From Squalus acanthias (Eukaryota), in assembly GCA_030390025.1 (NCBI GenBank), contig CM059431.1, positions 115,012,001-115,076,000 on the forward strand: 64,000 bases of DNA, read 5' to 3'. Both the position numbers and the translations under genes were made by a program. This document shows positions 37,811 through 43,798 of the stretch, one piece after another; the stretch's first letter is position 1, and each line of letters begins with the position of its first letter. Under the pieces are notes generated by a model. The model was not told where the DNA came from and did not search any database. It saw only the letters and a list, made by a program, of their open reading frames with translations.

Positions 37811-38742
37811 ATGGCAGGAAATCTCGGAACCGTGTCGTGCTCCTCCTGTGCTATGTGGGAAATCAGGGACACTTCCAGTGTCCCTGACAACTATGTGTGC
37901 AGGAAGTGCGTCCAGCTGCAGCTCCTGACGGACCGCATGGTGGCACTGGAGCTGCGGATGGACTCACTCTGGAGCATCCACGATGCCGAGAACTTTGTGG
38001 ATTACTCATTTAGTGAGGTGAACACACCGCGGGTAAAGGCTAGGTCAGACAGTAAATGGGTGACCAAGAGGCAGGGCAATATCAGGAAGGTAGTGCGGTC
38101 GTCTCCCTCCAAAACAGATATACCGTTTTGGATACTGTTGGGGGAAATGACCTACCAGGGGAAGGCACCAGCAGCCAGGTTCATGGCACCATGGCTGGCT
38201 CTGCTGCACAGCAGGGCGGGAAAAAGAGTGGTAGAGCTGTAGTGATAGGGGACGCAATTGTAAGGGGAATAGACAGGAGTTTCTGTGGCCGCAACCGAGA
38301 TTCCAGGATGGTATGTTGCCTCCCTGGTGCAAGGGTCAAGGATGTCTCGGAGCGGCTGCAGAACATTCTGGAAAGGGAGGGTGAAGAGCCAGCTGTCATG
38401 GTGCATGTAGGTACCAACGATATAGGTAAAAAGCGGGAAGAGGTCCTACAAGCAGAATTTAGGGAGCTAGGAGCTAAGTTGAAAAGTAGGACCTCAAAGG
38501 TAGTAATCTCTGGGTTGCTACCAGTGCCACGTGCTAATCAGAGTAGCATGAACCGGATAGCGAGATTAAATACGTGGCTTGAGCAGTGGTGCAGGAGGGA
38601 GGGATTCAAATACCTGAGGCATTGGAACCAGTTCTGGGGGAAGTGGGACCTGTACAAAAGGGACGGTCTGCACTTGGGCAGGACTGGAACCGATGTCCTC
38701 GGGGTAATATTTGCTAAGGCAGTTCGGGAGGATTTAAACTAA
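37811..38742 (+). pseudogene. CR1 ORF1: CxxC..CxxC zinc finger/coiled coil plus SGNH esterase; one frameshift near 38095
   Basis: CSSCAMW..CRKC..LELRMDSL in one frame. LQNRYTVL..VVIGDAIVRG..CLPGA..VHVGTND..DGLH..DLN* in the next (SGNH blocks; catalytic GDS reads GDA). Confidence 0.9.
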
Positions 38743-41725
38743 TATGGCAGGGGAATGGGAACCTATGTAGCGAAACAGGGGGAAGTAATATGCAGTCAGA
38801 AACAAATGTTAGAAGGGTGAGAAACAATAAGGGAAATCCGAGTAAACAAAGGCAAGAAACACAAAGGGCCATACTAAATCATAAGTCTAAAAGGACAAAG
38901 GGTGTTAATAAAACAAGCCTAAAGGCTCTGTGTCTTAATGCAAGGAGTATCCGTAATAAGGTGGATGAATTGACTGTGCAAATTGATGTTAACGGATATG
39001 ATGTGATTGGGATTACAGAGACGTGGCTCCAGAACAATCAAGGCTGGGAACTGAATATCCAGGGGTATTCAACATTCAGGAAGGATAGAATAAAAGGAAA
39101 AGGGGGTGGGGTAGCATTGCTGGTTAAAAAGGAGATTAATGCAATAGCTAGGAAGGACATTAGCTTGGAGGATGTGGAATCAATATGGGTTGAGCTGCAG
39201 AACACCAAAGGGCAGAAAACATTAGTGGGGGTTGTGTACAGACCTCCAAACAGTAGTAGTGAGGTGGGGGAGGGTATGAAACAGCAAATCAGAGGTGCAT
39301 GCAAAAAAGGCGCAGCAGTTATCATGGGTGACTTTAATATGCATATAGATTGGGCTACTCAAACTGGAAGCAATACGGTGGAGGAGGATTTCCTGGAGTG
39401 TTTAAGGGATGGTTTCCTAAACCAATATGTTGAGGAACCAACTAGAGGGGAGGCCATCCTGGACTGGGTGTTGTGTAATGAGGAAGGACTAATCAGCAAT
39501 CTTGTGGTGCGAGGCCCTTGGGGAAGAGTGACCATAGTATGGTGGAGTTCTACATTAGGATGGAGAAGGAAACAGTTAATTCAGAGACCATGGTCCAGAA
39601 CTTAAATAAGGGCAACTTTGAGGGTATGAGGCGTGAATTGGCGAGGTTAGATTGGCAAGCGATATTTAAGGGGTTATCAGTGGAAGGGCAATGGCAGACA
39701 TTTAGAGATCGCATGGATGAACTACAGCAATTGTACATCCCTGTCTGGCGTAAAAATAAAAAAGGGAAGGTGGCTCAACCATGGCTAACAAGGGAAATCA
39801 GGGATAGTATTAAAAGCAAGGAAGTGGCATACAAATTGGCCAGAAGTAGCAGCAAACCCGGGGACTGGGAGAACTTTAAAACTCAGCAGAGGAGGACGAA
39901 GGGTTTGATTAGGGCAGGGAAAATAAAATATGAAAGGAAGCTTGTGGAGAACATTAAAACGGACTGCAAAAGCTTCTATAAATATGTAAAAAGAAAGAGG
40001 TTAGTAAAAACAAACGTAGGTCCCCTGCAGTCAGAAACAGGGGAAGTCATAATGGGGAACAAAGAAATGGCAGATCAATTGAACAAGTACTTTGGTTCGG
40101 TGTTTACTGTGGAGGACACAAACAACCTTCCGGAAATAAAAGAGATCAAAGGATCTGGTAAGAGGGAGGAGCTGAGGGAAATCCTTATCAGTCGGGAAAA
40201 GGTGTTGGGGAAATTGATGGGACTGAAGGCTGATAAATCCCCAGGGCCTGATGGTCTGCATCCCAGAGTACTTAAGGAGGTGGCCTTGGAAATAGTGGAT
40301 GCATTGACGATCATTTTCCAACATTCCTTAGACTCTGGATCAGTTCCGAAGGAGTGGAGGGTGGCTAATGTAACCCCTCTTTTTAAAAAAGGAGGGAGGG
40401 AGAAAGCAGGGAATTATAGACCGGTCAGCCTGACATCGGTGGTGGGTAAAATGATGGAATCAATTATTAAAGATGTCATAACAGACCATTTGGAAAGTGG
40501 CGACATGATAGGTCCAAGTCAGCATGGATTTGTGATAGGGAAATCATGCTTGACAAATCTTCTGGAATTTTTTGAGGATGTTTCCAATAGGGTGGACAGG
40601 GGGGAACCAGTAGATGTGGTGTATTTGGACTTTCAGAAGGCCTTCGACAAGGTCCCACACAAGAGATTGGTGTGCAAAGTTAAAGCACATGGGATTGGGG
40701 GTAATGTGTTGACGTGGATTGAGAACTGGTTGGCACACAGGAAACAAAGAGTAGGAGTAAATGGGTACTTTTCAGAATGGCAGGCAGTGACCAGCAGGGT
40801 ACCGCAGGGTTCGGTGCTGGGGCCCCAGCTGTTTACATTATATATTAATGATTTGGACGAAGGGATTAATTGTAATATCTCCAAATTTGCGGATGACACT
40901 AAATTGGGAGGCAGTGTGAACAAGGAGGAGGATGCTAGGAGGCTACAGAGTGACTTGGACAGGTTGGGTGAATGGGCAAATGTATGGCAGATGAAGTACA
41001 ATGTGGATAAATGTGAGGTTATCCAATTTGGTGGTAAAAATAGGGAGGCAGACTATTACTTGAATGGTGGCAGATTAGGGAAAGGGGAGGTGCAACGAGA
41101 CCTGGGCGTCATGGTACATCAGTCACTGAAGGTGGGAAGGCAAGTGCAGCAGGCAGTCAAGAAAGCAAATGGCATGATGGCCTTCATAGCAAGGGGATTT
41201 GAGTACAGGAGTAGGGAGGTGATGCTACAGTTGTACAGGGCCTTGGTGAGGCCACACCTGGAGTATTGTGTGCAGTTTTGGTCTCCTAACTTGAGGAAGG
41301 ACATTCTTGCTATTGAGGGAGTGCAACGAAGGTTCACTAGATTGATTCCTGGGATGGCCAGACTGACATATCAAGAAAGACTGGATCAACTGAACTTGTA
41401 TCCTCTGGAGTTCAGAAGAATGAGGGGGGATCTTATAGAGACGTTTAAAATCCTGACTGGTTTAGACAAATTAGATGCGGGCAGAATGTTTCCAATGTTA
41501 GGGAAAACTAAAACCAGGGGTCACAGTCTAAGGATAAAGGGGAAGCCATTTAAGACTGAGATGAGGAGGAACTTCTTCACCCAGAGAGTGGTGAATCTGT
41601 GGAATTCTCTACCACAGAAGGTTGTTGAGGCCAGTTCGCTAAATATATTCAAAAGGGAGTTAGATATAATACTCACAACTAGGGGGATCAAGGGGTATGG
41701 CGAGAAAGCAGGAATGGGGTACTGA
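38733..41725 (+). pseudogene. CR1 ORF2: APE endonuclease plus reverse transcriptase; single 1-nt frameshift near 39515
   Basis: NARSIRNK, ITETWL, YRPP, GDFN, LD, SDH (APE). SPGPDG, NYRPVSLTS, QHGF, YLDFQKAFDKV, PQGSVLGP, KFADD (RT). The frame is open from 38718; first ATG at 38790. Confidence 0.95.
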
Positions 41726-43798
41726 GGTAGCATGTTCAGCCATGAACGCATTGAATGGCGGTGCAGGCTCGAAGGACCGAATGGTCTACTCCTGCACCTA
41801 TTTTCTATGTTTCTATGTTTCTATGTCTTGGATGGTGTCGAGCTTCTTGAGTGTTGTTGGAGCTGCACTCATCCAGGCAAGTGGAGAGTATTCCATCACA
41901 CTCCTTACTTGTGTCTTGTAGATGGTGGAAAGGCTTTGGGGAGTCAGGAGGTGAGACACTCGCCGCAGAATACCAGACTCTGACCTGTTCTTGTTGCCAC
42001 AGTATTTATGTGGCTGGTCCAGTTAAGTTTCTGTTCAATGGTAACCCCGAGGATATTGATGGTGAGGGATTCGGCGATGGTAATGCCATTGAATGTCAAG
42101 GGGCGGTGCTTCGACTCTCGCTTGTTGGAGATAGTCATTACCTGGCACTTGTGTGGCACGAATGTTACCTGCCACTTATCAACCCAAGCCTGAATGTCGG
42201 CCAGGTCTTTCTGCATGCTGGCATGGACTGCTTCATTATCTGAGGAGTTGCAAATGGCACTGAACACTGTGCAGTCATCGGCGAACATCCCCACTTCTGA
42301 CCTTATGATGGAGGGAAGGTCATTGAAGAAGCAGCTGAAGATGGTTGGGCCTAGGACACTGCCCTGAGGAACTCCTGCAGTGATGTCCTGGGGCTGTGAT
42401 GATTGACTTCAGTTTTACTAGAGCTCCTTGATGCCACACATGGTCAAATGCTGCCTTGATGTCAAGGGCAATCACTGTCACCTCACCTCTGGAATTCAGC
42501 TCTTTTGTCCGTGTTTGGACCAAGGCTGTAATGAGGTCTGGAGCCAAGTGGTCCTGGGGGAATCCAAACTGGGCATCATTGAGCAGGTTATTGGTGAGTA
42601 AGTGCTGCTTGATAGCGTTGTCAATGACACCTTCCATCACTTTGCTGATGATTGAGAGTAGACTGATGGGGCGGTAATTGACCGGATTGAATTTGTCCTG
42701 CTTTTTGTGGACAGGACAGACCTTGGCAGTTTTCCACATTGTCGGATAGATGCCAGTGTTGTAGCTGTACTGGTACAGCTTGGCTAGAGGAGTGGCTAGT
42801 TCTGGAGCACAAGTTTTCAGCACGACAGCCGGGATGTTGTCAGGGCCCATAGCCTTTGCTGTATCCAGTGCGCTCAGCCGTTTCTTGATATCACATGGTG
42901 TGAATCGAATTGGCTGAAGACTGGCTTCTGTGATGGTGGGGACCGCAGGAGGGGGCCAAGATGGATCATCCACTCGGCACTTCTGGCTGAAGGTTGGTTG
43001 CAAATGCTTCAGCCTTGTCTTTTGCACTGACGTGCTGGGCTCCGCCATCATTGAGGATGGGGATATTCATGGATATCCTCCTCCCGTTAGTTGTTTAATG
43101 GTCCACCACCATTCATGACTGGATGTGGCAGGACTGATCTCGGACAATGGGCTGTGCATCCAGATACCTGGTGGTATGCATCTACATCCTGGTAATTACA
43201 AGTGGGATGCTAAATGCATCTGTTTCTCTGTTGATTCAACGGGAAAACACACTGGGTCATAGTTGGAGCCATCAGATTAAAAAATATTTAAATCAATATC
43301 GAGATTGCAAGATGAGTGACTGTTTAGTGTATTTGAACCTGAACTTGTTATCTTCTTCATTTTGTTAAACTTTCCAAAATTAAGATTCACGACCAACTCC
43401 TGATGTACTGAAATTTTTCTTCACTATCAAAAGTTTACATCAATACAAAGAATACCAACAAAGAACTCCCAAGAAGAATCCCTGCAGTGCGCATGTCCGA
43501 TAGTTCTTTTTGAGGGGGTGGGGTGTTTGCTTGTTGCATTAATCTGACTTTTTTGTACTGTAGTGTAAATTTTTTGGCCAATATCTTCCGCTCTCTGTCG
43601 GTCTGGGTGGGGGTCAGGAGCGGAAAATGTGGTGGGCCAGCAGTTCCCCAGCATCCTCGGTCCCTTCAGTGATTTTCTGCTAGAAGTGATCGTGGACATC
43701 GAATATTTGGGCAGGCACATTCAAATGGAAGGATAACAGGAACGCATCATCCAATATATTTCCTGTCATTGCACGCCAGGAATGCTGCTGCACTCATT

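Follow-up and report, generated by a model that had tools for sequence, protein, structure and literature searches.

In retroviral and long terminal repeat (LTR) Gag-Pol genes, and in coronavirus ORF1a/1b with its UUUAAAC site, a slippery heptamer of the form X_XXY_YYZ stands in phase with the upstream open reading frame (ORF), and the polymerase ORF follows in the -1 frame. How ORF2 is translated from the bicistronic RNA of long interspersed nuclear elements (LINEs) is an open question, graded in the relevant passages of reviews as 'not clear' or 'unconventional' (PMC2881922, PMC3894237, PMC3708506). Here we analyze a LINE of the CR1 type, described in a 2026 survey excerpt as the dominant retrotransposon of most vertebrates (PMC13343379), which lies in a 64,000-nucleotide stretch of the Squalus acanthias genome (assembly GCA_030390025.1, contig CM059431.1, positions 115,012,001 to 115,076,000, forward strand; hereafter the window). 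Its ORF1/ORF2 junction carries U_UUA_AAC in phase with ORF1, directly before the ORF1 stop, with ORF2 in the -1 frame. Programmed -1 frameshifting that would make an ORF1-ORF2 fusion is the best explanation of this sequence arrangement, with a probability that we put at about 0.65.

As with Gag-Pol, a fusion of structural protein and polymerase at a low ratio would be expected for CR1. Unlike Gag-Pol and the coronaviruses, CR1 is a non-LTR element in which no hairpin was predicted (pseudoknots were not searched), the heptamer directly adjoins the ORF1 stop, and two G-runs make up the 3' element. In luteovirus-type sites, too, the slippery heptamer immediately precedes the 0-frame stop, as it does in CR1, but the viral sites rely on defined RNA structures, in some cases long-range ones, and none was found in CR1, where long-range pairing was not searched. 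According to passages of the literature, pol is in the -1 frame in 28 of the 51 animal LTR elements of a 2003 survey (Atkins et al. 2016, PMC5009743), and two Dictyostelium LINEs, TRE5-A and TRE3-A, which differ from CR1 in clade, host and ORF1 type, are said to have a -1 frameshift (PMC5911963). Published excerpts on silkworm SART1, with its UAAUG coupling, and on human L1, with reinitiation, indicate that ORF2 needs ribosomes that have translated ORF1 and that the sequence just past the ORF1 stop matters; there, ORF2 protein (ORF2p) is unfused and a slippery site is unneeded, whereas the window CR1 family has no AUG at the stop and its ORF2 is always in the -1 frame. Literature searches on slippery sites in non-LTR elements brought up only Atkins et al., whose LINE passages deal with HeT-A, TART and L1, not with CR1 (PMC5009743). 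We found no report of a CR1 frameshift site in the open literature, older subscription papers on CR1 being outside the search, so that a prior mention is possible; a literature search built on the junction string gave no match, and the words 'frameshift' and 'overlap' are absent from the main text of the 2026 survey (PMC13343379).

The ORF1/ORF2 junction in the window

The element has, by its Pfam domains, the CR1 layout of an esterase ORF1 followed by an ORF2 with apurinic/apyrimidinic endonuclease (APE) together with reverse transcriptase (RT); ORF1 matches the SGNH/GDSL esterase family PF13472 with an E-value of 3.7e-12 (47.6 bits, cut-off 32.9). Its assignment to CR1 is based on these domains and on the junction string, which matches consensuses labelled LINE/CR1 (ScyCan_CR1-1a, PriPec_CR1-7 and HypSab_CR1-6b) in the supplement excerpt of PMC13343379. 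The 3' end of ORF1 reads GAT TTA AAC TAA (38731-38742), with the heptamer at 38733-38739 in the X_XXY_YYZ phase, and the -1 frame across the heptamer reads TTT AAA CTA ATA TGG CAG GGG AAT. This frame is closed by a TAA at 38715-38717 and then stays open into the APE-RT ORF2, so that the two ORFs overlap by 25 nt. A G-rich tract, GGCAGGGGAATGGG, begins at 38746, 6 nt past the heptamer, while the first ATG of the ORF2 frame stands at 38790. These features of the junction had been described in the earlier note on this DNA, which had proposed -1 frameshifting from them, and every coordinate was confirmed. No AUG of the SART1 type, overlapping or abutting the ORF1 stop, is present in the window family, which reads TAATAT at this place. 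In comparison with five other young copies, the window copy is damaged: ORF1 has lost 13 nt after 38093, and the loss of 1 nt after 39514 displaces the second part of ORF2. The junction is intact.

The window CR1 family is young. A search of the 3.7-Gb genome of the same species with a 501-nt junction query gave 1524 candidates, and all 40 that were scored are about 100% identical to the window. The junction string is identical in 30 of the 30 loci fetched; ORF1 forms a 314-aa frame from its first Met in 8 of them, and the ORF2 frame is open over the full 1767 nt fetched in 8. When contigs from four sequencing runs, bearing four organism labels, were compared over 38560-38960, 73 variant places were found, and none of the 40 best supported falls within 38721-38770, although they are dense on either side.

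Conservation in diverged families and other organisms

Since the near-identity of young copies is uninformative on selection, we examined diverged relatives. The heptamer, its phase and the -1 relationship, whose conservation the earlier note had proposed to compare among relatives, are conserved together with the adjacent stop in nine CR1 families of the S. acanthias genome (with ORF1 identities as low as about 45%), in a distant metagenome lineage (there as G_GGA_AAC) and in published consensuses. A Pfam-guided search of the same genome with PF13472 returned 34,982 candidates, 150 of which were scored and 30 loci taken; identity to the window element is 62-72% for their ORF1 and about 45% for their APE. 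TTTAAAC is in phase and directly followed by TAG or TAA in 20 of the 30; the other ten show a point change in the heptamer (six loci), the string kept with an upstream indel (three) or an unclear situation (one). The -1 frame holds ORF2 in 18 of the 30. A third family, found with a sawshark ORF2 fragment, is more distant (ORF1 43-58% identical). ORF1 was detectable in 14 of its 20 loci, and eight of these 14 combine GCT TTA AAC TAA, ORF2 in the -1 frame and a 25-nt overlap. Nine short stretches yielded the families e, g and h, with the same arrangement of heptamer, stop and -1 frame, together with an old family f and three fused copies that are described below. By our own arithmetic, about 0.2% of random sequences should have a canonical heptamer at one given codon position, and its recurrence in diverged families rules out chance. 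Among family-a matches, the heptamer is intact in 91 of the first 100, but these are dead copies and uninformative on selection.

Constraint is concentrated on the heptamer and its surroundings. With eight shark representatives aligned at the heptamer, no variation is seen in it or in the first two bases of the stop, and column conservation is 0.8-1.0 at offsets +10 to +29 (..TGGCAGGGGGATGGGAAC..) before dropping to 0.4-0.6. Heptamer and stop are adjacent in eight of nine shark family representatives, and likewise in the metagenome lineage. TTA is preceded by GAT, GGT, GCT or ATT, codons for D, G, A or I whose third base is always T; this fixed T under a varying amino acid is what a tandem-slippage site requires. 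The Leu codon itself is TTA wherever DNA was read. At the position matching 38715-38717, TAG or TAA is present in seven of eight shark family representatives (including L054, L055, L074, L086, L087 and L088), where the ORF1 codons lying across it encode S, K or R. The stop of the -1 frame looks conserved in its own right, fixing the 25-nt overlap.

The same pattern emerges from ORF1 proteins. An exhaustive search with an intact ORF1 gave 2781 relatives at E <= 0.001, and 97 of the best 150 cluster representatives have a complete C-terminus, defined by a catalytic DGxH block 18-45 residues before the end. These proteins terminate in LN in 40 cases, GN in 10, KN in 3, EN in 2, SN in 2 and scattered residue pairs in 40. 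C-terminal Asn, present in 57 of the 97, is preceded by L, G or K in 53 (binomial 3e-26; because cluster representatives and families are related, this p-value and the next overstate independence and are indicative only). L, G and K being the residues of UUA, GGA and AAA, X_XXA_AAC is implied. In addition, the residue at -3 has a codon that can end in T in 39 of 40 LN types versus 1 of 10 GN types (Fisher 3.9e-8), and the residue before G in the GN types is Q in nine of ten, whose codons may end in G and never in T. The named LN-type members are turtles, a lizard and a snake. Searches of the S. acanthias genome with GN-type (P0107) and KN-type (P0151) ORF1 found only LN-type families, 32-43% identical.

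As to DNA, three loci, two of them usable (L090 and L092), came from scanning metagenomes with an alignment of KN-type ORF1. Their ORF1 ends read CAG GGA AAC TAG and CCG GGA AAC TAG, that is, G_GGA_AAC in phase with an adjacent stop, their APE ORF is in the -1 frame, and G-runs follow 12 and 20 nt downstream; scans of viral contigs for related ORF1 loci found none. Published CR1-group consensuses were taken from the first 400 letters of each cell in Supplementary Table 2 of the 2026 survey and judged by eye, without tool translation (PMC13343379). In this excerpt, TTTAAACTA occurs 23 times, 17 times where visual inspection places the end of ORF1, with G-runs after it, and six times in 5' regions; the codons CTT, TGT and TAT are thereby added to those found before TTA, and PogVit_CR1-2 reads GCT TTA AAC TGA followed by GGGGAGGGGAC (PMC13343379). 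The 17 consensuses comprise five with crocodilian labels (AllMis_CR1-1b, AllMis_CR1-6a, CroPor_CR1-3a, CroPor_CR1-3c and CroPor_CR1-7b), AmiCal_CR1-1, AquCat_CR1-2b, CalMil_CR1-1b, HypSab_CR1-6b, LatCha_CR1-1, PriPec_CR1-7, AldAff_Crack-2, ScyCan_CR1-1a, ScyCan_CR1-1b, SquAca_CR1-17a, SquAca_CR1-22 and SquAca_CR1-6c. We take the label abbreviations to stand for alligator, crocodile, bowfin, bullfrog, elephant shark, stingray, coelacanth, sawfish, catshark, dogfish, a halosaur and bearded dragon. With PogVit_CR1-2, the excerpt holds 18 consensuses with TTTAAAC, stop and G-runs from 12 vertebrate species as read from the labels, covering reptiles, a frog, bony fish, the coelacanth and cartilaginous fish. 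ScyCan_CR1-13 keeps the string with no stop after it, which is either a misfit or an indel of the consensus.

Frameshifting and competing routes to ORF2

We infer that a fraction of the ribosomes translating ORF1 would slip back by one base on U_UUA_AAC, just before the ORF1 stop, with tRNA-Leu and tRNA-Asn re-pairing to UUU and AAA. The slipped ribosomes would read on in the -1 frame and, much as for Gag-Pol, yield ORF1 fused to ORF2, while the others would terminate and release free ORF1 protein. Between the heptamer and the catalytic Asn of APE, the -1 frame is free of stops in nine of nine representatives (47-72 codons), and the other two frames contain 2-17 stops over the same span; the probability of an open frame under shuffling is 0.001-0.06. 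The conserved features that follow the heptamer are the abutting stop and two G-runs, 8-12 and 17-20 nt past it, and these are candidate stimulators of such slippage.

Several observations weigh against this interpretation. Minimum free energy (MFE) folding with shuffles predicted no stable stem-loop 5 nt downstream of the heptamer, with z-scores of -2.6 to +2.1, mostly near or above 0, in calculations to which pseudoknots and long-range pairing did not belong. A two-layer G-quadruplex is predicted in only three of nine representatives, no structure common to the representatives emerged from MFE and G-quadruplex-aware folding, and an Rfam scan of 38500-39000 gave no match. Taken together, these results mean that a defining part of classical -1 signals is either missing or unconventional. 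The suggestion of the earlier note that G-rich RNA may act as the pause is partly supported: two G-runs are conserved, with neither a stable hairpin nor a general G-quadruplex predicted. Furthermore, 44 of the 97 ORF1 tails are other than LN, GN or KN, and the p-values of the tail analysis are tempered by relatedness as stated above. A comparison of codons past the heptamer between families d and e (three synonymous and six non-synonymous changes in the -1 frame, 1/9 and 2/6 in the others) gives a weak indication of coding in the -1 frame. In family f, represented by one old copy (L084), the junction reads ATT TTA AAC AAG TAA ATG, with an extra codon between heptamer and stop, an APE motif in the 0 frame and an ATG adjoining the stop; it may be a different junction type or mere decay. 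Finally, some relatives have an ATG that overlaps the stop, as with TAATG in the excerpt of ScyCan_CR1-1a and in P0003, which begins MWQGDGN, and such an overlap is the layout of stop-start coupling.

Among the alternatives, the one that survives best is an entry into ORF2 after termination that would dispense with AUG: an 80S or 40S ribosome would stay on the RNA, the P-site tRNA would re-pair from AAC to AAA, and unfused ORF2p would be made from near the Leu codon CUA. Post-termination ribosomes can shift to nearby cognate codons. Such a route would suit both the stop that directly abuts the heptamer, in the shark representatives and metagenome lineage counted above, and the families that lack an ATG, and it would agree with review passages that tie LINE ORF2 translation to ORF1 translation and to reinitiation by the same ribosome (PMC2881922). 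We nevertheless consider it unlikely: only AAC would matter, but constraint also extends to the four leading bases of the heptamer, and the U before UUA, the G before GGA and the co-variation of the -3 residue with the type form the signature of two-tRNA slippage.

Slightly less probable again is that ORF2 starts conventionally, through reinitiation, leaky scanning or internal entry, at the AUG that comes first in its frame (38790), with the junction block serving as an RNA signal. The window family does have an ATG 48 nt past the stop, the first ATG of family a comes just before APE, ScyCan_CR1-1a and P0003 have the stop-overlapping ATG mentioned above, and SART1 offers a precedent in which review passages describe UAAUG together with a downstream structure (PMC3894237, PMC3708506). 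Against this, the ATG position is not conserved among the families: the first Met of the ORF2 frame occurs at codon 18-63 past the heptamer, and families g, h and i have none before APE; the 25-nt overlap, too, is devoid of ATG. In each of families g and h, at least 40 copies share 99-100% identity over the ATG-less span; both families are therefore young, and the absence of an ATG upstream of the APE catalytic residues is a property of recently amplified elements. The -1 frame is nonetheless kept free of stops upstream of the ATG, and a start at this codon gives no role to an in-phase heptamer, so that the comparison of the two favors the heptamer. It is very improbable that the heptamer is a side effect of a conserved peptide at the ORF1 C-terminus, with no translational role; a structural role of the tail is conceivable, as 35 of 40 LN-type representatives have LN 26 residues past the DG of their catalytic block, but L, G and K, exactly the XXA-encoded residues, alternate at one position, Leu is always TTA where DNA was seen, and the preceding third base is fixed while the amino acid varies.

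Programmed -1 frameshifting, the interpretation of the earlier note, is thus supported at the sequence level and can be extended to what would be a pan-vertebrate feature. A broader proposal, which we rate somewhat below even odds, is that X_XXA_AAC abutting the ORF1 stop would be the ancestral and general route to ORF2p in LINEs with an esterase ORF1 (CR1, Crack and related elements, in vertebrates and beyond), made as an ORF1-ORF2 fusion and driven by the stop and the two G-runs, possibly bound by protein or rRNA, instead of a pseudoknot. For an open question such as ORF2 translation, a conserved canonical signal offers a concrete mechanism that reporters can test. If frameshifting holds true, a Gag-Pol-like fusion would change the view of CR1 ribonucleoprotein assembly and cis-preference, ORF2 annotations that begin at the first ATG would be too short, and CR1 would provide a vertebrate-wide case of -1 frameshifting in cellular genomes with an unusual stimulator.

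Fused forms, feature coordinates and neighboring sequences

Three copies from the S. acanthias genome (L081, L082 and L083, 321 nt each) have ORF1 and ORF2 in one intact frame, of 1280, 1192 and 1211 aa, respectively, owing to an additional base in the G-run that immediately precedes TTTAAAC. The length of this run, from CTGTT to TTTAAAC, was counted in the first 100 of 1538 b-type junctions: it is 8 nt in 58 and 9 nt, the fused state, in 19, the other lengths being 11 nt (9), 7 nt (8), 10 nt (5) and 6 nt (1). A fusion protein is therefore at least encoded by young copies as sequenced, a homopolymer error of the assembly being possible. In a 285-aa predicted protein from an ENA contig (P0036), about 35 residues separate an esterase C-terminus from the beginning of APE in the same frame; judged by its sequence, this protein appears to be a natural fusion of ORF1 and ORF2 in frame. 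A passage by Metcalfe and Casane notes subgroups of CR1 and L2 that have a single ORF (PMC4120745).

The features of the window copy are collected in Table 1. The short +1-frame ORF listed there is opened by an ATG one base past the ORF1 stop and extends over 8 codons in the window and 38 in family e; families a, b, c, g, h and i lack this ATG. Two annotated sawshark proteins, P0001 and P0007, match the product of the short ORF at their N-termini; they start with MAGGWEP and were considered as evidence for an ORF2 start at the ATG past the stop. They were rejected as such, since in family e the same ATG opens the 38-codon +1-frame ORF, and the two protein models probably mix frames.

Table 1. 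Positions of the junction features and ORFs of the CR1 copy, numbered from the first letter of the window
Feature	Position	Strand	Domain or remark
ORF1 of the young CR1-type LINE: N-terminal Cys-rich/coiled part and SGNH/GDSL esterase	37811..38742	+	Pfam
TAA stop of the -1 frame	38715..38717	+	sets the ORF1/ORF2 overlap to 25 nt
ORF2 part 1: linker and APE endonuclease, -1 frame relative to ORF1	38718..39605	+	PF03372, PF14529
Slippery heptamer T_TTA_AAC, in the X_XXY_YYZ phase of ORF1	38733..38739	+	
ORF1 stop TAA, immediately 3' of the heptamer	38740..38742	+	
Conserved 3' block TATGGCAGGGGAATGGGAACCTA, two G-runs starting +10 and +17 nt past the heptamer	38743..38765	+	
Short +1-frame ORF, ATG..TAG (MAGEWEPM*)	38744..38770	+	
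First ATG of the ORF2 frame, 19 codons past the heptamer start, 48 nt past the stop	38790..38792	+	
ORF2 part 2: remaining APE and reverse transcriptase	39482..41725	+	PF00078, E 1.5e-32

A CR1 endonuclease fragment, 55% identical to the element, is filed as Aeromonas cavernicola on a 741-bp contig (P0016) and is probably a contamination of that assembly by host DNA. Directly 3' of the CR1 copy, the window contains at 41944-43066, on the minus strand and thus in the opposite orientation, a fragment of a different RT-bearing LINE.

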